DNA of 64,000 nt from an uncultured virus (IMG/VR IMGVR_UViG_3300023171_000012) (Duplodnaviria > Heunggongvirae > Uroviricota > Caudoviricetes), in the IMG/VR virus record IMGVR_UViG_3300023171_000012; one strand, given 5' to 3'. Under the pieces are notes generated by a model that worked only from the letters and a program-made list of their open reading frames with translations, was not told where the DNA came from and ran no database searches. A program made the translations under genes and the position numbers. Shown here in pieces: positions 2 through 62,251 of this stretch; the stretch's first letter is position 1; every line of letters begins with the position of its first letter.

Positions 2-3000
2 CCTTCGTATTACACCACGCTGAAGGCCACTGTTGGTGATGACATCGCCGGGCGTTTCTCGCAATACGTGTTTGCCGACGAGTCGGTGGATCGGTCCATG
101 CCCGAGCTGGACAGTCTCTACGTCCTCGTCAAACGTAGGTATCTTCAGAAGACCCGCACCCGGCAATTCTACGATGATGATCTCGATTCCGACATCACGG
201 AAGCGGTCACTGTCATCGAAGCGGGAACCGGATCTTCGAGTTCCTCCGCAGGCAGTGTGACCGAGATCCAGCCCGTCAACATCTGGCACGATCTCCAGAT
301 CACCAAAACAGTCGTTGGGTTCAGCACGATCAAGACTCTCCCGATCCTCATCAAGGACATCCCCTACCAGTTCCCGAAACTTCTCAAAGGAGCCATCTGG
401 ACAGGTATCTCGGTCTATGCGGACAGCGACACCGCCGCCACCTCCTACGCTGAGTCGTGGTACATCTACTGGGACATCGCCCAGCCGACGCAAGGACCGT
501 TCGAAGCCCGGGTGCGGCGTTTCCTCGTTGCCAACCCCGACTCTCTCCGCACCACCTACCCGATCCAGACCATCGTCACCAAGGACGAGACAATCGGTCA
601 GGCCCGGGGATATTGGATCGCCAGCAGCAAGGGTAACACCACCTACGCCCGGGCGGAACAGATCGTCGTACCCGAGTCGATCCATGGTGAGATCACCATC
701 CAGAATTCCAATCTGATCGGAGCCATCGGCCAATCCACGGACAAGCTTCCTGCCAGCCCGGGCTTCGCTGCCTTTTCCGCTCTGACAGAGATGAACATCG
801 GCTATGAAAGTTCGAAGACCCGCTACGGCTTGTATTTGGTAGAAGTGACCCAGCTCAATCTCTCGGGAGTTTACAACGGCGTGAAGGTTCCCTTCGGTTC
901 TGAAAACCCTGGAACTTCGGGAGTCGGAGACACGTCAACCGCGATTGAACCGCCGCCAACACCCACTGCCACGATCACTTCCAACAACCGGACCATCTCC
1001 GGGGTGGCGAGTGCTGGTAACACCGAAGTCCGCGCTACCGCTGGAGGTGTTGAGATCGGCCGCGTGATGGCGAACGTCACGACCGGAGCCTACTCGATGC
1101 CACTCACCACGCCGTATTTGCGGGATGTGACTGAAATCGTGGTAATGTCCCGTCGCAGCGGTGCTGAATCCCTTCCACAGAAGCTTTTCTCATTCGACCT
1201 TGCCCCGCTCGCTCCATCGGCAACCATCACGACCGATCTCACCACGGTGAGCGGCAAGACCGAGCCAGGAGCCATCGTGAACATCCTGAAAAATGGATCT
1301 TATCAGGTGGAGACGGCAACGGTGGTTGAGTTCAACTACCAGGTGGAGACTCTGACGTTCGTCGGTCCGATCACAGCGGATGGACTGGTGGACATCAAGT
1401 TCACCTCGGCCACGACAGGTTCGCCAATCACAGTTCAAATTTCTGCCGTCATGGGGGATTCTGATGAAACCTTGGCTCAGAAGGGCGCGATTGCCCTGAT
1501 CGCGGATTCGACGATCAATGCCAACTGGCAGGTCATGTGGCTGGTTGGCAATACCGTGCTGGCCCGCGTGCGGGTTCCTGCGGCCGACGACGCCACAGCG
1601 GAGATGGAGATCCTCGACCCGAACGTCACTGGTATCACTCCGGCGGTCTCCGCCGACACGGTTCCCGGCGATCCCGTGACGATCACCACAGCAGGCAACG
1701 CCATGATTGTGGTGACGGAGAACAACATCGCCGGAGCACCAATCTACTTCGCCGTGGCGTTCGGGGATGACCCGGATGCGATTGCAGCGAAGGCGGAAGC
1801 CGCACTGGATGCGTCCACCATCAACAATCGCTTCGTTGCCTCCAGTGCGACAAACACCTTCGCCCTCACCGCGAGAACCCTCGGCCCGAATGATCCGAGC
1901 CTGAACATCGCGCTCTCGAATTACACCTGTGAAGGTCTGGTGGACGCCCCAAATTCCGTCCAGACCACACCAGGAGGAACTCCAGCCACCGTCATTGCGA
2001 ATGCCGACGGCGTGTATTCCTATCCGTTCTCTCCTCCGTTATACGGCGGATTGCCCGTCCCAGATTCACTTACCATCACGGCTACCGATGATGGTGGCAC
2101 ATCACCTGCCACGGTGGTCACGGCATCCAATACTCCTCCGACGATCTCAAGTGCATCTTTCCCCGGTGGCGACTATGACACGATCACCGGATCGGCTTCA
2201 CCGGCAAGCGTGGTGCGTGCCTACGTGAACAACGCACAGGTCGGCAGCGCGGTCACGAGCGGTGGCGGAACCTACAACATCACCCTCTCATCCAACCTCA
2301 TCAATCATGAGTATGTGGAGGTATTTGCCACCGATCCGGTCACTCCCACTGTCCGTTCCGCCTCCATTTTCATCTATGCAGCGGAACTCGATCTCGAAGT
2401 CCCGACCTACGAGCAGAGCGACTCACTCGGCTATTTCGGAACGGCCCCGGTGGGTGCGACCCACATCAAGCTGCGGAATCCAGGCGGATCTCTTACGGAC
2501 ATCCCGATCCTGATGCCTTCCCGCAATTTCTCGTTCTTCATCACTGGACAGAACGGCGAGGACTACCAGTTGTTCGCCCGGTATGCAGTCGGGGATTCGG
2601 ATTTCAGAATTATCTCGGCTCCATTGGTGGAACTGGAACCACCAACGATTGAAATCTTCGACAGATCGCGCAACGTGGTTCTTACGACGGAAGGTTCTTT
2701 CCAACGCTACCGTGCTCAAACGACGGCCCGGGACGGCTACCTGATGTATGTAACACCATCGGTTGGAACGACGCTGGCCCAAACACTCATCAGCTTCCCC
2801 GGCCAAGCCCCAGCTCCCTACGTCCCATCAGACAACAAGCTCTACCCTTACGCGGTAGGTGCTCCAAAGCCCACTGGAGCGGGAATCGTGGACGCTACAT
2901 GGAGAGGCCCGATGATGTATCTCAACAATGGACCTCCGGGCACGACCAACGCCCAGTTGAAGACCATCTTCCTCGCCCAGCTCCCGACGGTCATGCAGGT

Positions 3001-18863: not shown

Positions 18864-19075
18864 GCGTCCAGTTCCTGATAAGTGTAAGTCTTCGGAGCGA
18901 AACCCGCGCACTTGACGGTGATGGTCTGCGCGTCTTCGTCCATCACCATTTTCAGGCGGCTTCCTTCCGGTAGGTCGTGCTCTTCACGGTATTTCTCCGT
19001 GACTACGGCGACGCGCTTCACTGTGCAGGCAATGCACAGCTTCGGTTCAATGGGTGCTTCGGCGAATGAGATCAT
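18860..19075 (-). CDS. Hypothetical protein
   Basis: ATGA-coupled at both ends. Confidence 0.55.
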   Translation of the reverse strand: MISFAEAPIEPKLCIACTVKRVAVVTEKYREEHDLPEGSRLKMVMDEDAQTITVKCAGFAPKTYTYQELDA

Positions 19076-19578
19076 GGCGTGGGTAGTTTGGATCTGTCAT
19101 CCACCAGTGTTCCACATTTGATGGCATCCATGAGGATGTTGCACGAAGCGGCAATGTGGGCCAGGTGGCTGATTGTGGACTCCGGGTCGAGGTCTTCACC
19201 ATCCTGCCACGCTCCGAGATGTCTCCTCATTGCCGAAACATAGGTAGTGGCGCAGACGTTGTTGGATCGCCAGTTGAAGGCTCCATATTTTTCTTGGCCA
19301 AGTTTGTGGACCCACGCGGTCTGTTCCATCGCAACAGGCGGGAGTAGGTGGAGTGGTGCTTTCTTGGCACCATTTGCGCCTTTCGGATCGCTGGAGGGTG
19401 TTGTAATTTCGGGCGTAACTTCAAGAAGACACCGCCATACTTCGAGACCCAGACGTTCTATTGACACGACTGAGTACATCTGTACGCCATAAGTCTGATT
19501 GCTACCTATGGCAGGCTCGGAGGGCAGATTCAACGAGTATTCTTCTCCGTATGGCAATCTAAAAATATACAAGTTCAT
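19072..19578 (-). CDS. dATP/dGTP diphosphohydrolase-like protein (DUF5664)
   Basis: K.PL.LLP...G..KYG..NW...Y..A..RHL..W..GED.DPES...HLAH pattern. Confidence 0.8.
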   Translation of the reverse strand: MNLYIFRLPYGEEYSLNLPSEPAIGSNQTYGVQMYSVVSIERLGLEVWRCLLEVTPEITTPSSDPKGANGAKKAPLHLLPPVAMEQTAWVHKLGQEKYGAFNWRSNNVCATTYVSAMRRHLGAWQDGEDLDPESTISHLAHIAASCNILMDAIKCGTLVDDRSKLPTP

Positions 19579-22998: not shown

Positions 22999-25182
22999 TT
23001 AATCCTTAAGATAATAGGGTGCCTGTGAACCGTCACAATCGAGTGGAAATGAACTTGCCCATTCATCCCGCGTCTGCATGGCTTCCATGAATCCTTCTAA
23101 AGGTAGACTACCATCTGCGAGAGATAGAGCTTGGTCATGGACAATCAATCGGATGTCATAACCCCTGCGTTCGGCTTCGATGCAACCACGATTCAGGAGA
23201 CATGCCCCCGTTGCCTGAATGGCATTTTCAAAGACGCGGCTTCCAAAGGTAGCCACCCGGCCCCATGTATTGGTGAGCGAGATCTTGCCATAGAAACTGA
23301 TCTGGTCCACCCAGTAGCCGCCCTTCTCACGCTTCCATGGGGCTTCCACCATATCGGCTTCATCATATTTACGAAACACGGATTTGATCTGGGGACTGGG
23401 GTAGTAGAGTTTCCGACCACTGGGTAAGGTCATCACCAGATAAGAAATGCCCGCAGCCCGGCCACAGGTGAAAGATAGCCTTCCAGCACATGCCCCAAAC
23501 TTTTCCCCTGGCTTCCGAATGGCGTCACGAATAGCCTCTTCAATGTCGCGCCACGATTTGACCGTGCTCTGGTTGGTCTCCCGGTAAATCTTCACATAGT
23601 CATCACATTCCTTTCGAGTCCGAGAGACATTGTAGGGGGGCTTCGCCAGTGCTTCCATGAGGGCCTTGCCACCGACGCCAAAACAGCAACCCAGTACGAC
23701 TGGCTTCGCAATCGTGCGCTGCTCCTTGGTGACATCCTCATAGGGTATCTTGAAGAGTTTTGCCGCCATGGATTTGTACTGGTCGATACCTGCCACGATG
23801 GATTTCAGCCCTTCCTCATCACCCGCAAGCCAACTGGTCAACCGGGCTTCCACCCCTTTGTAGTCAATGTCATAGAAATAACCAGTGTGGGGCTGAATGA
23901 AATGTCGGATGCTGGATGCAATCGCCTCCAGGGGTGACTCCCACAATTCTTCGAACCAATCCAAGGAAAAGCCTTCGCATATCATCTGATAGCAAAGAGC
24001 AGAATGTTCAATGGTGGTCTTGCGGAAATTCTGCGGTTGAATGATACGTCCGGTAGCCCTCCCAGTTCTCGCTCCATGCCATTGGGTGGTGCCTTTCACC
24101 GTGTGATCCGGGCAAGCCGCATCCCTCATCACGGGCAGCTTTTTTAGAGCTGCGAAGCTGAGAAGTGAGCGCATGCGGAGAACTTCAATAGCGATGGGGC
24201 GCATGTCGGCTGGAGGTTTCTCCAGCACTTCCTCCACGGTGCCCGCCTGCAAGTCATTCTCCGGGTAGCCGCGCTCCCGCAACCATTCCAGCAGCTTCGC
24301 ACGTTGCCCGGAGGTAATGCCCTCGGTCATGGTGAGCACCCTGGCTTCCAGCTTCTCCTTATATTTCTCCACCAATATGTCAGCATGCCTCAGTGCCTCC
24401 ATGTTCACTGGCACCCCCCGGAAATTCATCTTCAGGTCGAACTGAAAACTGGCAAGCTCATCCCCCTTCAGTTCAAAATGCTTCAGCTTGTTGTGGAGTT
24501 CGCGTTCGACCTTTACATCGTTCCGGCAGTAAGCACAAAAGGTCTCCCATGCCTCACGCACGGTCATGAGGTTTCCTCCCACTTTTATCTGCCAATCCCA
24601 CAAGATTTCTTCATCCAGAATGGGATTATTCGACGTGCGGTTAGCGGGTTTTTTCCCAGCGGTGAAAGAACCATTCTTGAGCTGCTTGATGGTGTCAGGG
24701 TCTTTCATGCCAGGCGGCGGAAACAACGTAACCGACTTCGTTTGGATCGAGAACACGTCGATCAAAGACTTGCCGATGGCATCTTTCTTGTAACCCAGCC
24801 CAAAGAATTCTGCCGCCGCAGCGAGGGACTCAGGAGCAGCAGCACGTTTACACATTGCTTGGGTGCATCGGTACACGTCAAGAGAGTCTGGTGGTGATAT
24901 TCCAACATCCGCTTCCAAGCGTGACGCGGTAAGCGGGATCTCGAACGCAGCGTGATGGGCGTACAAGAGCTTTTGTTTCTGAATTCCATCATGGAGCATT
25001 GCCTCTGCCGCCAAAGATTCTTCACCAAAGGGATCTACGAAAGACCACAACAATGGCTCTCCCGTTGTCCCAGCAACAGCAAACATGAGAATCCGCGTAG
25101 AAGGGTCCGCAGCATAACGGTAAGAGCCTAACGAGATGTCGCAGGCAGAAGTGGTCTCGTAGTCAAAATGCAATTCATTCAT
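22999..25182 (-). CDS. Phage family A DNA polymerase with 3'-5' exonuclease
   Basis: ExoI DYET, ExoIII YC.NDV, GARTGR, motif A DYKGVEAR, motif B R..AK...LG..FG, motif C VHDQ. Confidence 0.92.
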   Translation of the reverse strand: MNELHFDYETTSACDISLGSYRYAADPSTRILMFAVAGTTGEPLLWSFVDPFGEESLAAEAMLHDGIQKQKLLYAHHAAFEIPLTASRLEADVGISPPDSLDVYRCTQAMCKRAAAPESLAAAAEFFGLGYKKDAIGKSLIDVFSIQTKSVTLFPPPGMKDPDTIKQLKNGSFTAGKKPANRTSNNPILDEEILWDWQIKVGGNLMTVREAWETFCAYCRNDVKVERELHNKLKHFELKGDELASFQFDLKMNFRGVPVNMEALRHADILVEKYKEKLEARVLTMTEGITSGQRAKLLEWLRERGYPENDLQAGTVEEVLEKPPADMRPIAIEVLRMRSLLSFAALKKLPVMRDAACPDHTVKGTTQWHGARTGRATGRIIQPQNFRKTTIEHSALCYQMICEGFSLDWFEELWESPLEAIASSIRHFIQPHTGYFYDIDYKGVEARLTSWLAGDEEGLKSIVAGIDQYKSMAAKLFKIPYEDVTKEQRTIAKPVVLGCCFGVGGKALMEALAKPPYNVSRTRKECDDYVKIYRETNQSTVKSWRDIEEAIRDAIRKPGEKFGACAGRLSFTCGRAAGISYLVMTLPSGRKLYYPSPQIKSVFRKYDEADMVEAPWKREKGGYWVDQISFYGKISLTNTWGRVATFGSRVFENAIQATGACLLNRGCIEAERRGYDIRLIVHDQALSLADGSLPLEGFMEAMQTRDEWASSFPLDCDGSQAPYYLKD

Positions 25183-25757
25183 GCTTGAACCCTCCCATGA
25201 TTTACGTGGTAGCCATATACATTTTCGGCGGACTTCCGCGCCACTGCTGCATCCTCCTTGCTATCAAAAACACCTAAATGGGTTAGTCTCCCGCCCACAG
25301 TAATGTTTGCTGTCCATTTTTGAATTCCTGTGTGCCAATGAACCCCCATAATGCCCGAAGTGTTTCGCTGGGGCCTAGCCGTATTTTTCTGGTTTTCGTC
25401 CCGAGAAATGGATCTCAAATTAGCCCACGAATTATCAAATGTTACGCCGTTGATATGGTCGATAAACTTTGGCTCTTCTCCTGTTACAATTTTCCAAATT
25501 ATCCTGTGAGCCAAATAAGGAACCCCATTTATGTAGCCATTCAGATAACCCGCTCTGTTTGACGTGTAGAAAGCTTCACTCCCCGGGTGCTGTGAATTCC
25601 AACTGGATACAAGCCTTTTGGGATACTTAATATCTAGATTAAAAGTCCAATCAGGCCGATGTTTCCAAACCAGTTTTCCGGAAATTGAGTCATATGACAG
25701 AATTTTTCGTAAAAGGTCTGCATCTGGCAGCAGTTTAATAGGGGCGCAGGTAATCAT
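25179..25757 (-). CDS. HNH homing endonuclease with AP2-like C-terminus
   Basis: AHRIIW...IDHING...DN...NLR and NTSGIMGV.W motifs; lower GC. Confidence 0.9.
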   Translation of the reverse strand: MITCAPIKLLPDADLLRKILSYDSISGKLVWKHRPDWTFNLDIKYPKRLVSSWNSQHPGSEAFYTSNRAGYLNGYINGVPYLAHRIIWKIVTGEEPKFIDHINGVTFDNSWANLRSISRDENQKNTARPQRNTSGIMGVHWHTGIQKWTANITVGGRLTHLGVFDSKEDAAVARKSAENVYGYHVNHGRVQA

Positions 25758-27854: not shown

Positions 27855-28403
27855 TTATCCGTGGTTGGCGAATTTGCCGTGTAACCGTTTTCTCGCATCT
27901 TCAACGGCTTTCGTCGCATCCTCGATGTTATCAAAGCTACCGAGATAGAGGTAAGGCCCTTTATTCTGACGAAGGCGGGCTATCCATTTGTTGGTGCCTT
28001 TTCTGAGTGAAACGCCTTTGACCCCTGAAGTGTTGTTACTCCGCAATTTAGAATTCTGAAGGTTTTCAAATCTACGAACCACCCGGAGGTTAGCGATTCG
28101 GTTGTCATCTCTGGAGCCATTTATGTGGTCCACATCGCCTTCAGGCCATTCTCCTGAAGTGACAAACATCGCAAGGCGATGAGCCAAGACCCGAACTCCA
28201 CAAACATCAATATGGCGATAGCCATTGTAGGCGATAAAACCTGCAATGTTTCCCACACATCTAGCATTCCATCTGTTTCTGAAATTGTCGTGTGGGAAAT
28301 CTTCCGCAGAACGTGGGTTCCAACGGAATTCACCTGAAAGCGGGCAATAATTGAGATGCTTGAGAAATTCCTCTTTTGTTTTTGTATTAGGCTTCGGTTT
28401 CAT
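27855..28403 (-). CDS. HNH homing endonuclease with AP2-like C-terminus
   Basis: AHRLA...VDHING.RDDNRIANLR, NNTSGVKGV and YLGSF motifs. Confidence 0.9.
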   Translation of the reverse strand: MKPKPNTKTKEEFLKHLNYCPLSGEFRWNPRSAEDFPHDNFRNRWNARCVGNIAGFIAYNGYRHIDVCGVRVLAHRLAMFVTSGEWPEGDVDHINGSRDDNRIANLRVVRRFENLQNSKLRSNNTSGVKGVSLRKGTNKWIARLRQNKGPYLYLGSFDNIEDATKAVEDARKRLHGKFANHG

Positions 28404-50062: not shown

Positions 50063-50374
50063 ATGAATATTAATCAGCAAATTCAAGAAGTGTATCACCT
50101 CGCAGGATCAAAAACGTGTGGGTGTTGTGCGGGAAAAGGGGAAGTCCAAAATTCCGAAGCCATCGGCAAGGAGATCCGCGCCCGACGCGAGGCAGCAGGG
50201 CTAATCATCGCGGAGGTCGCCAAGCGTGTGAATCTCAAACCAAGGTATCTCCATCTTTTGGAGGAGGGAGAGAAGTTTTGGTACACTCATGACCTTCGTG
50301 AGGTTCTCAAAGCCCTAGACCCAGCTTGGGTAAAGACCACCCCTCCCGAACCCCCAACTACCCTCATCTTATGA
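50063..50374 (+). CDS. XRE-family HTH protein with N-terminal CxxCxGxG
   Basis: IRARREAAGL...EVAKRV......L..LEEG motif. Confidence 0.75.
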   Translation: MNINQQIQEVYHLAGSKTCGCCAGKGEVQNSEAIGKEIRARREAAGLIIAEVAKRVNLKPRYLHLLEEGEKFWYTHDLREVLKALDPAWVKTTPPEPPTTLIL

Positions 50375-51000
50375 GCACTCCAGTCGCAATCCTCGTCCGC
50401 GTCTCCACCCAGAAGCAGGAGACAGATCGTCAGATCCACGAACTGACCCAGCTCGCCGCAGCCCGCAACTGGCATGTCACCGAGACCGTGTTCGAGCATG
50501 GAGTATCCGGTGCCGTCGACACCCGTCCAGGACTGGAGCGGTGCTTGGAGCTGGCCCGCGCCGGAACCATTGAGAAGGTGCTCGTCCATGAAGTGAGCCG
50601 TGTGGCGCGGAAGAACTCCATCGCCCACAAGTTCCTGGAGGATCTCGCCGAACTGAAGGTCTCACTCTACTGGCATGCCCACAGCATTGAGACCCTGCTA
50701 CCGAATGGTAAGCAGAACCCCGCCGCGTCCATCATGTTTTCCTTGCTGGCCGAGTTCGCCCGGGCCGAGCGGGAACTGATGCGGGAGCGCACCATGTCCG
50801 GTGTGGCTGAAGCCCGCCGCCGGGGAGTGGTGATGGGCAGACCCAAAGGGACCACAACACCTGATGATGTCATCCTCACCAAATACCCCGATGTCGCCCG
50901 CCAGCTCCGCGCCGGTCAGTCCATCCGCCATGCAGCGGCAATCACCGGGAAAAGCAAAGCCACCGTGGAGAAAATCAAGAAACTACTTGTCAGAGTGTAG
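50371..51000 (+). CDS. Serine recombinase (resolvase/invertase type) with C-terminal HTH
   Basis: RVST..Q, SG....RPGL, SRVAR, AE.ER....ERT..G...A and GRP motifs. Confidence 0.92.
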   Translation: MSTPVAILVRVSTQKQETDRQIHELTQLAAARNWHVTETVFEHGVSGAVDTRPGLERCLELARAGTIEKVLVHEVSRVARKNSIAHKFLEDLAELKVSLYWHAHSIETLLPNGKQNPAASIMFSLLAEFARAERELMRERTMSGVAEARRRGVVMGRPKGTTTPDDVILTKYPDVARQLRAGQSIRHAAAITGKSKATVEKIKKLLVRV

Positions 51001-53024: not shown

Positions 53025-56000
53025 ATGAGCAGAGGAAGACCACCTAAGATTACCCCCGCACCTGCGCTGAACTATTACGGTTTGGAGCGGTTGGGGTATG
53101 CCAGTGCAATCCCCCTGACAGGTGACTATTTTGCAGATCAGCTCACTATTGAGTTTATCTGCTTTCGTATTTCACATCGTCGGAGTGAAGGCGGTCTGGA
53201 TAGGTTTGGGCACATGAAGAAGGGCATCGACCTTCTTTACAATAACCCGGATCGGCCCTCCATGAAGTCGCTGGTCTGGAACCCTTGGGCCGAGCGCATG
53301 ATGAGGAAAGCCTGTGAGTGCTCAGAGCTTTCGGTCGCTGGCCCGACCTCCGCTGGAAAATGCTGGTCCCCTGAAACGCCCATTCTCCGATTTGATGGCA
53401 CAATATGCCGGGCTGATGAAGTTCGGCCGGGGGATCTTCTCATGGGCGATGACAGTCAGCCGCGAACCGTCCAAGAAGTGCATTCGGGAACCGGCCCGAT
53501 GTATCAGGTCACACCAATTCAAGGCGAACCATGGAGATGTACACCCGAGCATGTTCTCGTCTTGAAGAGAGCCTTCGCTCCTAAAAAATGCTGGAGACGC
53601 GTGGGGGAGATTACAGAAGTATCGGCAGAGGATTATTTCAATGCCAGCATTCAATTCAAACGACAACATAAGCAGTTCTGTGTTGGCGTGGAATTTCCTG
53701 AACAACCAGTCCCCTTCGATCCCCGTTTGCTTGGGATATGGCTCGGCGACGGACACTATCATGGCTGCCGCATTTCCATACCCGACATCGAGCCTGACGT
53801 TCTAGCATACGTCCGTGAATGGGCAGGTCCCGCAGGGTATCAGGTTGTGGTTCCAAAAGATTGGAACCCCGGCTGCCCGAGCTACCCAATCTATCCAGTA
53901 AAACAGATAGAAGGTTTTGGGAGAGGCCGTAACCCGTTGGCTCAGTTTTTCAAAAGCAATATACGGGATGGAGAGAAACGCATCCGTCCCGAGTATCTCA
54001 TCAATTCCCGGAAAGTCCGGCTGGAGCTTCTTGCCGGGTTGCTTGACACGGATGGGCATGCTGCCGGGACATACTTTGAAATAGCCACAAAGTATGGAGG
54101 GTTGAAAGATGATATTCTTTTCTTGGCACGATCTCTCGGATTTCGTGTGACGGCGACACACCGCTTGGCAACATGCCAGGGGAAAAAATTCCCATCTTGG
54201 AGAATCAATATCATGGGGGAGCTGTCGGAGATTCCTACTCTTCGGAAGAAGTGCCGAGACAAAACTCTCCGGGTGAATTCAGACCAGACAGGAATCACGG
54301 TCTCCAAGGTGGAAGATGGCCCTTGGGTCGGCTTCTCCGTGGACGGGAATCACCGGCTCCTGCTTGGAGACTTCACTGTGAGTCACAATTCAGACCCTTA
54401 CGCCGCGTATGCCCTGTTCAGCTATATTGCGGACCCGACACACACCAAAGTCCTCATCATGTCCACCACGTTGGACGGTGCGAAGCTGCGGATCTGGAAA
54501 ACTTTCCGAGAATATGTGTCCGCGCTGCCCAATCTTCCGGGAAAACCTCAATGGAGCACCAACCGGATTCAGGGGCCAAATTACGCAGGAGATGGCTACG
54601 GCGATTCCTCCGGGGTTATGCTTCTGGCATCTGAAAAGTCTCGGGAGAGGGATGCCTTGGAAAAGATGCTGGGGATCAAGGCCCCCATGACAGGTCGGCC
54701 GGACAAGACTTTCGAGGCTCTGAAAGCTCGACCGGAGTTTGCCGATCTCGCAGAACAGTTCGATGATGAGTATCTTGAAGACCTGCTCCCCCGCTTGGCC
54801 AATCTCACAGATGACCGCGCCGGGAAGTTGATCTTAATCGTCGATGAAGCAACAGGACTCTCTGAATCCCTACTCCAAGCGATCAACCTGAACATGAAGC
54901 CCGGCAACGCCGGAAACCTTCAGGTCATTATGATTGCCAACCCGCATCTACATTGGGACGCCCACGGAATTTTCAGTGAACCAAAAGTCGGGTGGGAGAA
55001 TATCACTATCGACGATGAGGAGTGGGAGACAAAAACCGGAGGAACTTGCATCCGATTCAACGGTGAAAAGAACCCGCGTCTCACAGAGAAGAACGAGCGA
55101 TATGTCTGGATGCTTTCCCAGCAACGGATCGAAGATATTGCCCGCGACTCCGGCGGAAAAGGCAGTATCGGGTACTGGCGAATGGTTTTAGGGGCCTGGC
55201 TACCACAAGGTTCTGATTCGGGCATTTACAGCCAAGCAGACATCGAGCAGGCGGGAGCGATGAAGAAGGCGGTTTGGGGGTTCAGGCCACCAATCATAAT
55301 TTCCGCGCTGGATACCGCCTACACCAGCGGCGGGGACAAATCGAGCTGTTCATTCTTCAATTTTGGGCTTGATACCGAAGGCATCCAGACCTTGGAGCTT
55401 ATCGAGCAAATCGCCATCAAGACGGACATCAATGACCTGAGCCGCCCGATTAGCTACCAGATGGTCCATAACTGGCGGAAAGAGTGCAAGGCTCGCGGTG
55501 TGCTGCCGGAGCATGCTTGCTTCGATTCCACTGGTGGCGGGATCTCATTCGCGGACATCGTGAAAACCCAATGGTCTTCTCAAGTGCTCGGAATCAGCGC
55601 AGGCGGCAAAGCCCCGAAGGTTGCCGTCGGCAGTGAAAAAGACCGCGATGGCAAGCCTGTGCTGGCCTCTGACCGCTTCTTCAACAGAGCCACCCAGTTG
55701 TGGCTTGGAGCGATGCCGTTCCTGCGCTCCGGCCAGATAAAAGGTATCCCCATGGCACTCGCCAAGGAAATCATCTCCAGGCAGTATGACAAGACCGGAG
55801 CTGCCGACGGACGGACGCTGAAGATCGAAGGAAAAAGAATTTTCAAGTCGCGGGAGAAGCACTCTCCCGATGATTCAGACAGCTTCTTCCTCGGCATCGA
55901 GTTGGCGAAGGTCCGTCTCGGATTCAAACCTTCGGAACAAGCGGCAGCACCTGAAATGGTGACAGGCCGAAGTGGTGTCGGAACGTGGAAAGCGTTTTGC

Positions 56001-56042
56001 AACAAAGCCCGGCGCATCACGACGAAAAGAGGTCTCCAATGA
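53025..56042 (+). CDS. terL: Terminase large subunit containing an intein
   Basis: Walker A GPTSAGK|S, Walker B LIVDEA, coupling motif IANP, nuclease LD.A..GGD, FDSTG and SPD..D. Confidence 0.9.
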   Translation: MSRGRPPKITPAPALNYYGLERLGYASAIPLTGDYFADQLTIEFICFRISHRRSEGGLDRFGHMKKGIDLLYNNPDRPSMKSLVWNPWAERMMRKACECSELSVAGPTSAGKCWSPETPILRFDGTICRADEVRPGDLLMGDDSQPRTVQEVHSGTGPMYQVTPIQGEPWRCTPEHVLVLKRAFAPKKCWRRVGEITEVSAEDYFNASIQFKRQHKQFCVGVEFPEQPVPFDPRLLGIWLGDGHYHGCRISIPDIEPDVLAYVREWAGPAGYQVVVPKDWNPGCPSYPIYPVKQIEGFGRGRNPLAQFFKSNIRDGEKRIRPEYLINSRKVRLELLAGLLDTDGHAAGTYFEIATKYGGLKDDILFLARSLGFRVTATHRLATCQGKKFPSWRINIMGELSEIPTLRKKCRDKTLRVNSDQTGITVSKVEDGPWVGFSVDGNHRLLLGDFTVSHNSDPYAAYALFSYIADPTHTKVLIMSTTLDGAKLRIWKTFREYVSALPNLPGKPQWSTNRIQGPNYAGDGYGDSSGVMLLASEKSRERDALEKMLGIKAPMTGRPDKTFEALKARPEFADLAEQFDDEYLEDLLPRLANLTDDRAGKLILIVDEATGLSESLLQAINLNMKPGNAGNLQVIMIANPHLHWDAHGIFSEPKVGWENITIDDEEWETKTGGTCIRFNGEKNPRLTEKNERYVWMLSQQRIEDIARDSGGKGSIGYWRMVLGAWLPQGSDSGIYSQADIEQAGAMKKAVWGFRPPIIISALDTAYTSGGDKSSCSFFNFGLDTEGIQTLELIEQIAIKTDINDLSRPISYQMVHNWRKECKARGVLPEHACFDSTGGGISFADIVKTQWSSQVLGISAGGKAPKVAVGSEKDRDGKPVLASDRFFNRATQLWLGAMPFLRSGQIKGIPMALAKEIISRQYDKTGAADGRTLKIEGKRIFKSREKHSPDDSDSFFLGIELAKVRLGFKPSEQAAAPEMVTGRSGVGTWKAFCNKARRITTKRGLQ
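53361..54389 (+). mobile_element. Intein (343 aa) with LAGLIDADG homing endonuclease
   Basis: Starts C-W-S-P-E-T, block B CTPEH, LLGIWLGDG and LLAGLLDTDG, ends TVSHN followed by Ser. Confidence 0.95.
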
Positions 56043-59528: not shown

Positions 59529-60647
59529 ATGCCTGATCCAGACCCCATTGATGAAGCCTTTGCCAACCTCGCCGCGAGTTCACCCGAACCCGTTGCAGAG
59601 GGGCCGAACGCATTCCTTGAAAACTTCGCGGAGCTTCCTTCCGCCGATGAACCCGCAAAACCCGATGACACACCTACGCCGACTGAAACGAAGCCTGATG
59701 CGGACACTGACACCGATGGCTTTCCTGACGAACCGCCGAACAAGTCTTCGGAATCCGCCGGAAATGTCTGGAAAGGTCTGAAGACCGAGCTGAAGAAGAC
59801 CAAAGCCGACCTCCGCGCCGAGCGGGATACCAAGGCCCAAGAACTCGCCGCCCGCGACACCGAGCTGAACGAGCTGCGGGAGAAGACTTCCAAGCTGCCT
59901 GATCTGGAGCAGAAAGCCGCCTTCGTCGAAGAAGCCGAACGGAAGATTGCCATTCTCGATGTCAAACAATCCCGTGAATACAAGCAGGCCATCGAAGCCC
60001 CGCTTGACGCCATCGACGCTGCGGCCGAGATCATCGCCAAGGCGAACGAGGTCAAGCTGACCGATCTCCAAGATGCCATCATGGAAGCCGATCCGGTGAA
60101 ACGCCGGGAATTGCTCCGCACGGTCGTTGCTGACATGGACGACGTGGACAAGGCCGAAGTCATCCAGATGGCGAAGGACACCCAAATCATCCTTGCCCGT
60201 GAGCGCGAGATGAGTTCCAGAGCCTTCGAGGCTCGCAAGGAGTTGGAAGCCATCACCAAGGAGAATGAGACCAAAGCCCAGGAAGCCGCTCGCAAGACCT
60301 TCGAGACGGCTACTGAAAATTCGGTCGCAGAACTCCGCAAGCGTGTCCCGTTCGCAGAACTCACCGCCGGGGAGACCGCCGACGGTGTTTTCGGGAATGT
60401 CCTGACGAAAGCAAAAGCCGTGAATCTCGACACCGCCACTCCGGCGGTCAAGGCATTCGCCGCCGCCGCCGGTATCTTGCTCCCCCGGGTCGTGGCTCAG
60501 TACGTCGCTGCTCAAGCGGAGATCAAGACCCTGAAAGCCCGTATTGCCGGAGAAAATGCCGACCTTCCCCGGGTCAGTGGTGATCCGACACCGACGCTGA
60601 ATCAAAGCAAGGAAGTCGATTTTGCGAATTTCACACTTCCCACTTGA
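59529..60647 (+). CDS. Capsid scaffolding protein
   Basis: Acidic P/D/E N-terminus then coiled coil; between portal and MCP. Confidence 0.7.
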   Translation: MPDPDPIDEAFANLAASSPEPVAEGPNAFLENFAELPSADEPAKPDDTPTPTETKPDADTDTDGFPDEPPNKSSESAGNVWKGLKTELKKTKADLRAERDTKAQELAARDTELNELREKTSKLPDLEQKAAFVEEAERKIAILDVKQSREYKQAIEAPLDAIDAAAEIIAKANEVKLTDLQDAIMEADPVKRRELLRTVVADMDDVDKAEVIQMAKDTQIILAREREMSSRAFEARKELEAITKENETKAQEAARKTFETATENSVAELRKRVPFAELTAGETADGVFGNVLTKAKAVNLDTATPAVKAFAAAAGILLPRVVAQYVAAQAEIKTLKARIAGENADLPRVSGDPTPTLNQSKEVDFANFTLPT

Positions 60648-60669
60648 CGGCACTGCAAGGATGTAGTGT

Positions 60670-60775
60670 TGTCGGGGTGTCAGCAGAGGACACCACTTCG
60701 CTGCGCTGTTCGTTAAAGGCAGTCACCGGAAAAACAGATTCGTCTGCCGGGACCGAGCTGCGAACAGCGGCACAA
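60670..60775 (+). ncRNA. Candidate structured RNA upstream of tmRNA
   Basis: GGTGTC/GACACC hairpin; CGCTGTTCG/CGAACAGCG stem enclosing CCGG/CCGG and a CAGA-TTCG-TCTG hairpin. Confidence 0.4.
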
Positions 60776-60807
60776 TTTTTAGAACATAGCGGGTATCCCC
60801 GCAACCA

Positions 60808-61167
60808 GGGACGCTTCCGGTTTCGACTGAACCGGGTATCCTATTGATAGCATGCAGAGGTTGATCGGTGGGCCTCTTAAAAAGCCGATCAAGAATCCAA
60901 ATGGCAATAACGTCATCAGCTTCAGCCGCAACGTCGCAAAGTCTTCGGACCTCGCGCTTGTAGCCTAAGCGAAAAACGGTCCCCGCAATGATCCGATAAG
61001 CGGGAGACTCCAAACCGGATCAACAAACGGAACCCAGAGCCGTAAAGACTGGGTGGTGGATGGCGAGGAGGTTTTTACCAAAAGACCGAATCCCCCAAAT
61101 ATAAGCATGTTTGAAGTCAATAGGTAATCGGTTCAGGACAGGGGTTCGACTCCCCTGCGTTCCACCA
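60808..61167 (+). ncRNA. ssrA: tmRNA (one-piece, 360 nt); tag (A)GNNVISFSRNVAKSSDLALVA at 60903-60968
   Basis: Acceptor GGGACGC/GCGTTCC with G3-U70, ACCA end, T arm AGGGG-TTCGACT-CCCCT, P2 helices, pk1 GAGG/CCTC plus TTGATCGG/CCGATCAA. Confidence 0.95.
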
Positions 61168-61169
61168 CT

Positions 61170-61666
61170 TTCAGCCGAAAGGCATCAATATCGTGTGAAA
61201 TCCCGGTTCGACTCCGGGCTTCTCCTCTGAAGAGGAGAGGTAGTTTAACGGCAGAGCGCACACCCTCAATTTCCCTGTAACAAGGGGACTCATAAACACC
61301 AGAGGACCAATCACAAGCCCACCGTGTGACCGAAGGTGCCCGTCGTTTGTCGGGAATTTCTAGCCCAGTCGAGTGTCTGACTGGAAAACGGGGGAAGGCA
61401 CACCACATTTCAGTTCACTGTCATTGAGGGGAATCAGAAAATCAGCGGCCAGCCAACGCCAGTCGAAAGGAACCCGGAGCGATCCGGTAATACTGAACTC
61501 TGATTTAGCGACCTGAGCAGTGAATTGAAATGTGGTAACAGAAGGCTGTCTCTCACGAGTTGCCACATACGAGAGATAGTGCGGCCGAGCGAGTAATCGC
61601 GATAGCCACCTGCATCCAGAAGATGCGCGGGAGAGCTGAACCAAGCCCGTAAAATCCTACACTCAG
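61170..61666 (+). ncRNA. Large highly structured ncRNA (GOLLD-like candidate, class unconfirmed)
   Basis: 19-bp stem 61402-61420/61518-61536, several GNRA hairpins, long-range CCCTCAAT/ATTGAGGG, no plausible ORF, terminator follows. Confidence 0.6.
61193..61263 (+). ncRNA. Circularly permuted tRNA-like domain (T arm, capped acceptor hairpin, D arm; YrlA-like topology)
   Basis: GTGTG-AAAT-CCCGG TTCGACT CCGGG-CTTCTCCTC TGAA GAGGAGAGG-TA-GTTT AACGGCA GAGC-G-CACAC. Confidence 0.8.
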
Positions 61667-61670
61667 TTAT

Positions 61671-61702
61671 CCCGATGTCGGAATTCCGACATCGGGGTTT
61701 TT
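61671..61702 (+). terminator. Intrinsic terminator of the ncRNA cluster
   Basis: Perfect 26-bp palindrome CCCGATGTCGGAATTCCGACATCGGG followed by GTTTTT. Confidence 0.85.
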
Positions 61703-61742
61703 GCTTGATACCCGCCTGGATACCCGCTATTCAGGAAGGACT

Positions 61743-61865
61743 ATGAAACTGATCCTCCTCGCGCTTTGTCTCTGTGTCGTTTCCTGCGGAACTTCGATCA
61801 CCCTCACCCCAGATGGTGTGGTGATTACTCCGCCAACTGCTCCAATCGTCATTCCTACAAAATAG
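61743..61865 (+). CDS. Small lipoprotein (40 aa; not in ORF track)
   Basis: MKLILLALCLCVVS-C signal peptide with lipobox-like site; Pro-rich mature part; TTGATA-N17-TATTCA upstream. Confidence 0.6.
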   Translation: MKLILLALCLCVVSCGTSITLTPDGVVITPPTAPIVIPTK

Positions 61866-62036
61866 ATGTCCATCGGAACCAGACAACAGCCTGAAAAATG
61901 GCTGGATTTTAAATTCCGCCACAAGACGAGATCGCGGAAGTGGGAAAAGCAGAAGAAGAACCGAAAACTCCGGCATCTGGCTTCGGTGAACCCTGAAGTA
62001 GGACCGCAGCCTAAGTATTGTGGCTGGGAGTGGTAA
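61866..62036 (+). CDS. Small basic protein (56 aa; not in ORF track)
   Basis: MSIGTRQQ...KYCGWEW; starts immediately after the previous stop. Confidence 0.5.
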   Translation: MSIGTRQQPEKWLDFKFRHKTRSRKWEKQKKNRKLRHLASVNPEVGPQPKYCGWEW

Positions 62037-62044
62037 ATTTCATG

Positions 62045-62073
62045 TTGACATTCCAACAGTTTTTCAATAAACC
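62045..62073 (+). promoter_or_regulatory. Promoter for major capsid gene
   Basis: TTGACA-N17-TAAACC. Confidence 0.5.
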
Positions 62074-62251
62074 TCCTCGCGAAGCAATTCTCAGCTTTTT
62101 CAAAAAGAGGATCTCTCAATACTACTGAGTGTTTAATCCGGCTGCAAGGCTGGCCGTTACCGGGCACGGGTCACGAACTGAAGCTTACCAGCATTCTGCT
62201 GCGTAAGGAACCAATTCCACCCCTTCTACCGGCCCATGGCCAACCCCTTTT

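Follow-up and report, generated by a model that had tools for sequence, protein, structure and literature searches.

A probable structured RNA with a Y-RNA-like tRNA mimic downstream of a tmRNA gene in an uncultured tailed phage

What is the role of the roughly 500 nucleotides (nt) that follow a transfer-messenger RNA (tmRNA) gene in the head-gene block of an uncultured tailed phage (Caudoviricetes; IMG/VR record IMGVR_UViG_3300023171_000012), and do they encode an RNA? A preliminary description of the 64,000-nt stretch of DNA analyzed here (the window, to which all positions without a locus name refer) had placed at 61170-61702 an ornate non-coding RNA fused to a permuted transfer RNA (tRNA) domain, and had suggested a GOLLD-like RNA or a new RNA class. 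The analysis points to a probable new structured phage RNA that carries a Y-RNA-like tRNA mimic at its 5' end. That the stretch is a genuine RNA gene we hold with good confidence, and more firmly than we hold any account of how the RNA would act. The complete reading, in which 61168-61703 of the plus strand is a real structured non-coding RNA, forms one unit with the tmRNA, begins with a mimic of the Y RNA type and works by the mechanism proposed below, has in our judgment about even chances. The RNA would be about 480-530 nt long. The features are listed in Table 1.

The 5' domain has the build of a tRNA whose anticodon loop is open and whose acceptor end is sealed. An analog of the anticodon stem, GUGUG (61193-61197) with CACAC (61259-61263), closes the domain, and the variable region has 4 nt (AAAU). 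The T arm CCCGG-UUCGACU-CCGGG (61202-61218) is followed by a 9-bp acceptor stem (61219-61227/61232-61240) closed by a UGAA loop, then by UA in the places of U8 and A9, and by the D arm GUUU-AACGGCA-GAGC (61243-61257), which has A14, A15, G18, G19 and A21 and is followed by G26. Compared by eye with the invariant positions of tRNAs, the elbow set comprises U8, A14, A15 opposite U48, G18-G19, A21, the pair G53-C61 and the UUCGA T loop. The acceptor stem starts with G1-C72, G2-C71 and A3-U70, is followed by UCUGAAGA, and has U73 and no encoded CCA; we take it to lack any recognized tRNA identity set. A 7-bp register of this stem would place an RNase P cleavage site at 61233/61234. The heptamer behind the anticodon-stem analog is CCUCAAU, with C, not U, at position 33, and the pentamer UCAAU stands in both flanks of the mimic (61186-61190 and 61266-61270). 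Folded in isolation, the module forms the GUGUG/CACAC closure. The permuted tRNA domain of the preliminary description is confirmed in this form, as the 5' end of a long structured non-coding stretch, and so is the strong terminator, with 13 pairs and a T run, in which that stretch ends.

The region 60600-62000 was compared on both strands with all 4227 Rfam families at E <= 10 (cmscan). YrlA (RF02553) is the only family that aligns a T arm, an acceptor stem and a D arm in this order, by a local match at 61201-61257 (16.3 bits, E 3.7, model positions 30-81). According to Chen et al. 2014 (PMC4201824), YrlA RNAs contain a T arm, an 'AS' stem-loop and a D arm, carry a GNCGAAN0-1G motif, measure 80-130 nt and adjoin Ro60, and the YrlA RNA of Mycobacterium smegmatis is cleaved by RNase P and receives CCA. 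The 5' domain follows the design of the bacterial YrlA tRNA-like domain: a loop caps the acceptor, the anticodon loop is open, the anticodon-stem analog closes the structure, and the elbow invariants are kept. Further, a candidate motif of the GNCGAANG type lies about 20 nt upstream, and YrlA-type RNAs occur in phages too. The motif GCCGAAAG (61174-61181) fits GNCGAAN0-1G and precedes the T arm by about 20 nt, which is the spacing of the YrlA consensus; it is also part of a simple local hairpin, and the 19-nt stretch that carries it is missing in a variant from run X5. A second look-alike, GACCGAAGG at 61328-61336, is altered elsewhere: all three runs that reach G61332 have A in its place. Unlike YrlA RNAs, the RNA considered here has about 500 nt, carries about 400 nt of extra structure 3' of the mimic and is joined to a tmRNA gene. 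Among six YrlA features compared, four are lacking (score, size, a Ro60 neighbor and a full-length alignment), one, the tRNA-like domain, is present, and the sixth is the candidate motif at 61174-61181.

The same search returned no GOLLD, ROOL, group I intron, RNase P, 6S or ribozyme family at E <= 10, and no strong full-length match to any of the families that the preliminary description had named for comparison; group I introns and RNase P RNA were ruled out as candidates for this reason. ROOL is represented in Rfam by RF03087 (574 positions, gathering score 99.1); the collection also includes a profile for GOLLD, according to 10.1101/2024.12.08.627333. The suggestion of a GOLLD-like RNA thus found no support, and by sequence comparison the RNA does not belong to GOLLD or ROOL. 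A new RNA class, the other suggestion, is possible. The roughly 400 nt behind the mimic have no Rfam match. A second, permuted tmRNA was also considered. Like a two-piece tmRNA, the RNA has a T arm and 3' acceptor strand ahead of the 5' acceptor strand, and is found in a phage beside tmRNA sequence; unlike it, the RNA lacks G3:U70, CCA and a recognizable tag frame and has a real D stem. The only match to tmRNA_permuted scores 16.2 bits against a threshold of 47 and relies on the T arm of the genuine tmRNA gene, and no peptide resembling a hydrophobic degron tag was seen when the frames of 61264-61420 were read by eye rather than searched formally. With A3-U70, no CCA and no tag, this candidate was rejected.

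Relatives of the mimic occur in other phage contigs. Scanning IMG/VR for UCCACCA, a T loop and a D loop in this order returned 35 loci, 23 of them distinct, most of which are ordinary tRNA-tRNA junctions. Four combine a closed acceptor stem (5-7 of 7 pairs) with a 5-bp closing stem (5 of 5): L063 (identical to L084), L067, L069 and L085. Their acceptor and anticodon-stem sequences are unrelated to those of the window yet complementary, and pairing of 7/7 plus 5/5 positions by chance is very unlikely. In these four and the window's module, a set partly selected for complementary stems, 93.9% of pair cells are standard pairs versus 31-54% with slid partners, 17 of 23 pairs have changed on both sides, and none of 500 shuffles did as well. 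Aligned to the YrlA model, three contigs give full-length matches below threshold (L065, 36.1 bits; L063, 32.7; L085, 24.8). A covariance model built on the module (R1) is unspecific below about 45 bits, with ordinary tRNA-tRNA junctions scoring 12-45 bits; a search of the window with it found no second copy.

The adjacency of tmRNA and mimic recurs as well. The module of L085 begins 2 nt after a 78-nt tmRNA-like element (L085:1563-1640, minus strand) with G3:U70 and a UCCACCA end, which scores 34.5 bits, below threshold, and has no mRNA-like part; element and mimic sit between an excisionase-like open reading frame (ORF) and ORFs matching the PHROG 'Rnase E' and terminase families. Run X5 contains a counterpart of the window's tmRNA 3' end, with about 84% identity; six bases past its CCA comes a T arm, in whose stem two changes are compensatory. 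Since a tmRNA end and a T arm follow one another there too, the arrangement has been kept in a diverged relative. An IMG/VR pattern for a tmRNA end plus a T arm gave four loci, all of them unrelated odd tRNA-like elements in tRNA arrays, which were discarded.

The modules of the other contigs are about 90-100 nt long and no similar long domain stands behind them. When the 3' domain was compared with the surroundings of 39 loci (L045-48 and L063-97), only the module aligned, best in L085 with 64% identity over 86 nt; a 9-mer common to L063 and L067, AAGGTGCCC, sits in different hairpins and was rejected as homology. Among the loci returned are circularly permuted tRNA genes. L069:1479-1566 (minus strand) reads as a true permuted tRNA-Tyr(GUA): the break falls after position 38, the acceptor linker contains UCCA, and the anticodon loop is the canonical CUGUAGA. 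L065:1479-1583 (minus strand) is a permuted tRNA-Ala-like gene with a G3:U70/A73 acceptor and a 21-nt hairpin linker, and L087 carries, at about 1478-1568 (minus strand), permuted-tRNA repeat units whose linker contains UCCA. The mimic itself was rejected as a working permuted tRNA because position 33 is C and a CCA is lacking; L069, by contrast, has a complete anticodon loop with U33 and an encoded CCA.

The tmRNA gene upstream is complete and in one piece, has the acceptor pair G3:U70 and an encoded CCA end, and is the sole RNA of the window at an Rfam gathering threshold. ARAGORN gives identical coordinates and a different tag frame: its peptide is ATSQSLRTSRL, and the Rfam-aligned frame (translation of 60903-60968, resume codon GGC) gives GNNVISFSRNVAKSSDLALVA, each before a stop codon. 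The latter has the usual degron-like ending and may resemble the tags of cyanobacteria. The structured stretch as first delimited, from 61170, begins three bases past the tmRNA CCA end. Because no terminator lies between the tmRNA and 61168-61703, a strong plus-strand terminator follows both, and a 13-nt inverted repeat brackets them, we treat the two as one unit. Complementarity between tmRNA and RNA was rejected as a link, since one 9-mer and three 8-mers compare with about 3 expected by arithmetic. Of 401 genomes of one phylum (small genomes, probably not the host group), 15 had matches; these were confined to the tmRNA, at its T arm and acceptor end, and the RNA had no match.

The plus strand of 61168-61702 folds with a minimum free energy (MFE) of -197.4 kcal/mol, compared with -162.4 +/- 7.0 for shuffled sequences (z -4.97; none of 100 as good); for the minus strand z is -4.07. 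The plus strand is the RNA strand, because the pair G61413-U61525 would be an A-C mismatch on the other strand and the U run of the terminator exists on the plus strand only. All helices listed in the preliminary description were recovered at or within 1-2 nt of their places, the 19-bp stem being offset by 1-2 nt. The proposed tie between the two parts of the RNA, CCCTCAAT/ATTGAGGG, is not supported: the 941 nt examined contain 10 perfect inverted pairs of 8 nt, this one included, which is chance level, it would form a pseudoknot with the 19-bp helix and has an ensemble probability of zero, and its 3' partner falls in a 111-nt segment that one natural variant lacks. As to the possible closure of the whole by TTCAGC/GCTGAA, the pairing is present and is not above chance by itself. 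In the spacer, UUCAGC (61170-61175) can pair with 61635-61640 and GCAUC (61182-61186) with 61622-61626; the resulting 5'/3' duplex has -16.2 kcal/mol versus -11.1 +/- 2.8 with the 5' flank shuffled, and 5% of shuffles are as good. UACAC at 61658-61662 is an alternative partner for GUGUG at 61193-61197.

Comparison with other metagenomes favors an RNA over a protein. The full stretch was found only in the probable source run, and parts of it in four runs of three other aquatic studies, which were aligned at 80% identity or more. Contigs of these three studies match 61224-61539 at 94-99% identity, versus 86-89% for neighboring coding and leader pieces in the same run. Contigs of runs X2, X3 and X4 span 61224-61427 with 1-4 differences each, 61370-61539 is covered with 10 differences and one insertion, and 61333-61413 is identical in all three contigs that cover it (records 5, 9 and 11). 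On the plus strand, 61260 A>G, 61283 A>G and 61418 C>T replace Watson-Crick pairs by G-U pairs; 61481 G>A turns the loop GCGA into GCAA, which is still a GNRA loop; 61271 T>C breaks a terminal pair, and 61332 G>A lies in an internal loop. The helix 61431-61438/61499-61506 shifts its register and goes from 8 to 9 pairs through the combined effect of an insertion after 61435 and the substitutions 61438 A>G, 61497 A>C, 61500 C>T and 61506 T>C. The variant domain, with six substitutions and one insertion, has an MFE of -56.1 versus -55.8 for the reference and -49.0 +/- 4.4 for randomly placed changes. The 1-nt insertion shifts the frames of the ORFs 61373-61516 (plus strand) and 61360-61644 (minus strand), and none of the three ORFs of the region has a Pfam match. 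It is the structure-preserving changes and the frameshifting insertion that argue for RNA.

One contig fuses 61413 to 61525, exactly at the G-U pair, so that the interior 61414-61524 is gone; since a natural variant lacks it, the interior of the 19-bp helix is facultative. In X5, a diverged copy, the T stem covaries. A distant blastn search of the INPHARED phage records with 60780-61720 gave no match, and in IMG/VR a 22-mer from the invariant part and a 25-mer from the end of the X5 contig had no hits. The single IMG/VR hit of an 18-mer from 61328-61345, which spans the variable position 61332, is a chance match inside a coding region.

The unit as a whole is, by a comparison of loci, an accessory insertion in the gap between the capsid gene and the gene upstream of it, a 372-aa ORF in the scaffold position. 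This gap is 226-721 nt long in the 27 loci that have both flanking genes, versus 1605 nt in the window, and in the relatives it mostly holds, by eye, a stop codon, a terminator, a TTGAC promoter and a conserved capsid leader of about 200 nt. In all, 44 loci with relatives of the capsid protein were used (an alignment scan of IMG/VR found 3; single-query scans with the capsid and the 372-aa protein found none). None of them matches 60780-61720, except for the terminator hairpin in L022, where a twin identical in 29 of 31 nt lies just 5' of the capsid-gene promoter; and no tRNA or tmRNA was found in the 32 related loci scanned.

The 13-nt repeat has just two exact copies in the window, and these bracket the tmRNA, the RNA and the terminator. 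Its core octamer, CGGGTATC, occurs nine times in the window versus 1.07 expected, and four of the nine copies lie around the unit (60790 and 60833 on the plus strand, 61707 and 61719 on the minus strand), one of them inside the tmRNA. The five distant copies have no wider context in common. The inverted repeat may delimit a mobile or invertible cassette, form a processing stem in read-through transcripts, or serve as a pair of protein-binding sites; no target-site duplication was seen by eye beside the repeats.

Several observations weigh against this reading of the locus. In the ensemble of the full-length RNA the D arm and the GUGUG/CACAC stem are disfavored (probability 0.01), and forcing the cloverleaf costs 5.2 kcal/mol. 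The score of 16.3 bits for YrlA compares with a gathering threshold of 69, and no Ro60 or TROVE gene was found among the 96 ORFs of the window compared with Pfam (about 8 kb of the 72-kb contig lie outside the window). The covariation count overstates the independent support, because four of the 23 hits were chosen for their complementary stems, which is partly circular. For the 3' 400 nt or so the comparative data consist of few contigs at 94-99% identity, and the control for the variant energy is marginal, 6.3% of random placements being as stable. The structure of 61555-61668 comes from thermodynamics alone: the four other runs end before it, and depth is zero over 61588-62035. A scan for promoters and terminators found no sigma-70-like promoter for the tmRNA unit, and a weak terminator-like hairpin lies upstream of the tmRNA at 60757-60771. 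Expression, ends and processing of 61168-61703 are read from the sequence.

These weaknesses leave room for other accounts of the same evidence. The RNA could be an expanded true Y RNA, in which the strand with GCCGAAAG and 61621-61641 form the Ro60-binding stem, with the mimic on top and an insertion of about 370 nt in the internal loop; it would bind host Ro60 (Rsr) and tether it to a nuclease or a repair enzyme. The spacing of the motif, the two nested spacer pairings and the YrlA-type tRNA-like domain would suit such an RNA, and the literature records phages that encode TROVE together with a tRNA-like partner (PMC7824862; PMC4201824). It would be about four times the size of any Y RNA described (80-130 nt, PMC4201824), the YrlA model covers only a part of it, and the motif has the simpler local partner and is lost in X5. 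TROVE is missing not only from the scanned ORFs of the window but also from all five phage records with related modules, which are fragments. We therefore consider a true Y RNA unlikely. By a different division of the stretch, the 5' module would be a self-maturing permuted tRNA or tRNA-like gene, and 61264-61668 a separate RNA, a structured trailer or a processing element. The RNA does resemble the permuted tRNA genes of L069 and L065, with the 3' half before the 5' half and the two joined through the acceptor stem; circularly permuted tRNA genes are also known from the red alga Cyanidioschyzon merolae. The short modules of the other contigs, which do without a long domain, fit this division, as do the repeated UCAAU in the flanks here and CAGAU in L063, such as a permutation junction would leave, and the variant without the long-helix interior, which implies that parts of the 3' region are dispensable. 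Unlike those genes, the mimic has no usable anticodon loop, CCA or recognized identity set, and its 5' half continues into a structured RNA of about 400 nt, with neither a terminator nor an obvious boundary between them; it is this 3' region that is most conserved in other metagenomes, as the identical 61333-61413 in three contigs shows. A separate permuted tRNA gene is thus improbable.

At the level of DNA, the stretch could be non-functional hitch-hiking sequence or the interior of a mobile or invertible cassette, and its folding incidental. The unit is an insertion absent from the 44 relatives and has an inverted repeat unique in the window, the phage encodes a homolog of serine recombinases/invertases (50326-51000) and several homing endonucleases, and the minus strand folds well too. 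Mere cargo would not account for the strand-specific G-U pairs, the kept GNRA loops, the full set of elbow invariants and the structure-preserving variants, nor for an identity across studies above that of the neighboring pieces, and no target-site duplication was seen by eye; we regard this explanation as quite improbable. Finally, the RNA could be a distant member or an analog of GOLLD or ROOL, forming an RNA-only cage. It is phage-encoded, large and rich in hairpins, and lies beside tRNA-type genes, and 10.1101/2024.12.08.627333 describes GOLLD and ROOL as phage-encoded near tRNA islands, with a GOLLD linker that can carry tRNAs. It has no sequence or structure match to either family even at the permissive threshold used, is shorter than GOLLD (> 800 nt), and carries a permuted, capped tRNA element where GOLLD would embed an ordinary tRNA, all of which makes this origin highly improbable.

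If the RNA is one unit with the tmRNA and carries a Y-RNA-type mimic, as we prefer to read it, a precursor would be cut between the CCA end of the tmRNA and the mimic. With its tRNA elbow, made up of T loop, D loop and acceptor stack, the freed RNA would offer a handle to any protein or enzyme that recognizes tRNA shape and needs neither an anticodon nor a free CCA, for instance RNase P, modifying enzymes of the TruB or Dus type, or proteins of the Ro60 type. The GNRA-rich 3' domain of about 400 nt would be the effector or scaffold part. We suggest that such an RNA could act as an enlarged Y RNA: shaped like a tRNA, it would serve as a decoy or a tether, and it would be supplied along with tmRNA late in infection.

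More speculatively, the phage RNA of this locus could define a new class, that of tmRNA-coupled 'giant Y-like' RNAs, in which a capped permuted tRNA and an ornate domain of about 400 nt travel with a ribosome-rescue RNA in a mobile cassette; we hold this to be rather doubtful. Were it so, the tRNA-shaped handle would dock the ornate domain on tRNA-recognizing machinery without Ro60, ribosome rescue would be coupled to RNA surveillance or to counter-defense against host nucleases that damage tRNA or mRNA, and the small capped mimics of the other phage contigs, which have no TROVE, would be minimal members of the class. In the literature searched we found neither a tmRNA-linked Y-like RNA nor capped phage tRNA mimics without Ro60, nor the combination of a phage tmRNA, a Y-RNA-type permuted mimic and an ornate domain of this size. 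To our knowledge, large structured phage RNAs such as GOLLD and ROOL are rare and functionally unexplained, and we know of tRNA-shaped Y RNAs solely as partners of Ro60. The locus also suggests that capped permuted tRNA mimics are more widespread among phages that have no Ro60. Should the RNA prove stable in infected cells, it would offer a tractable case for asking what a tRNA mimic without anticodon and CCA is for, and why phages bundle such an RNA with ribosome rescue.

Table 1. Coordinates of the unit, its domains and its helices in the window
Feature	Coordinates	Strand	Evidence
Left arm of 13-nt perfect inverted repeat, ATAGCGGGTATCC	60786..60798	+	Exact-copy search
Complete one-piece tmRNA	60808..61167	+	Rfam RF00023, 112.5 bits (gathering 47), model positions 1-374
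Spacer from tmRNA CCA end to tRNA mimic, with hairpin CUUUC-AGCC-GAAAG	61168..61192	+	Sequence
Circularly permuted tRNA mimic with loop-capped acceptor stem	61193..61263	+	YrlA RF02553 alignment; covariation in 5 phage sequences
Multi-hairpin domain: 61271-76/61283-88; 61297-61338 (three short stems); 61339-42/61351-54; 61365-71/61378-84	61264..61401	+	Helix probabilities 0.64-0.89
Long-helix domain: 19-bp stem around 8-bp helix 61431-38/61499-506, 4-bp helix and GNRA-capped hairpin 61474-87	61402..61536	+	Folding ensemble, inverted pairs
3' hairpins: 61545-54/61571-80 (16-nt loop); GGC..GCC around GCGA-GUAA-UCGC (61583-61607); 61611-16/61622-27	61537..61668	+	Helix probabilities 0.90-0.99
Intrinsic terminator, 13-bp stem and U run	61669..61703 (stem 61669-61698)	+	Terminator prediction; plus strand only
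Second partial repeat copy, GATACCCGC	61707-61715	-	Sequence
Right arm of 13-nt inverted repeat	61718..61730	-	Exact-copy search
Helix TTCAGC/GCTGAA	61170-75/61635-40	+	Sequence
Helix CCCTCAAT/ATTGAGGG	61263-70/61423-30	+	Perfect inverted pair
Helix GTGCC/GGCAC	61336-40/61396-400	+	Sequence
Helix CCAGTC/GACTGG	61365-70/61379-84	+	Sequence
19-bp stem	61402-61420/61518-61536	+	One G-U (G61413-U61525); pairing probability 0.99
Helix AATCAGA/TCTGATT	61432-38/61499-505	+	Sequence
Hairpin CCGGA-GCGA-TCCGG	61474-87	+	Sequence
Helix CTGTCTCTC/GAGAGATAG	61546-54/61571-79	+	Sequence
Hairpin GCGA-GTAA-TCGC	61589-600	+	Sequence
Helix GCATC/GATGC	61612-16/61622-26	+	Sequence

The surrounding window is a phage contig with genes for a family-A DNA polymerase, a primase, a helicase, an exonuclease and a large terminase that bears an intein with Hint and homing-endonuclease domains (53025-56042). 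Two HNH-AP2 homing endonuclease genes lie within the replication module (25179-25757 and 27855-28403). The ORF 19072-19578 (minus strand) encodes a dATP/dGTP diphosphohydrolase N-terminal domain (PF18909, E 2e-28), a domain tied to phages with modified DNA bases. The next ORFs on the 3' side of the large terminase encode 203, 759, 95, 372 and 404 aa. The closest capsid proteins (P0002-P0005) share 71-86% identity with the product of the last. This product has no match in Pfam and PHROG searches; its AlphaFold model (pLDDT 80.3) matches the HK97-fold capsid proteins of the cyanopodophage Pan3 and of N4 (Foldseek, E 1e-10), and the product is thus predicted, from the model, to be an HK97-fold capsid protein. 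The preliminary description had located the RNA in the head-gene block, between scaffold and capsid genes. The position upstream of a capsid gene holds, and the label 'capsid gene' is right because of the structural match; the label 'scaffold' for the 372-aa ORF comes from gene position only.

Behind the terminator of the unit lie two small ORFs (61743-61865 and 61866-62036) and then a TTGACA promoter at about 62044. The product of the first is 40 aa long, carries a lipoprotein-type signal and has a tail rich in proline; that of the second is a very basic peptide of 56 aa; both ORFs are absent from the related loci and have no Pfam match below E 0.1. The 5' side of the capsid gene (62040-62251; L001-L042) consists of a TTGAC-type promoter and a conserved leader of about 200 nt, present in 15 of 15 aligned relatives. 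Its conserved blocks are GAGCUAAA...GCUCGGGAGAGGAACUGAAG, and the hairpins between them are variable and, by eye, covarying; RNAalifold on the alignment of the leader gives a 4-bp GAGC/GCUC pairing only. The leader is possibly a cis-regulatory RNA of the phage family.

Two further RNA elements were found in the contigs returned by the pattern scans. Conserved tRNA-like elements of about 100 nt occur in the tRNA arrays of large phages (L045-L048, for instance L046:2501-2600, plus strand); they have a GGATGC...GCATCC closure, an internal CCACCA and a T arm, and are not called by Rfam or ARAGORN. In L063, a phage contig of 91 kb in IMG/VR, 57-346 (minus strand) encodes a compact bacterial class A RNase P RNA of about 290 nt (102 bits, gathering 100), which adjoins a tRNA array and lies about 1.1 kb from the capped tRNA mimic of that contig.

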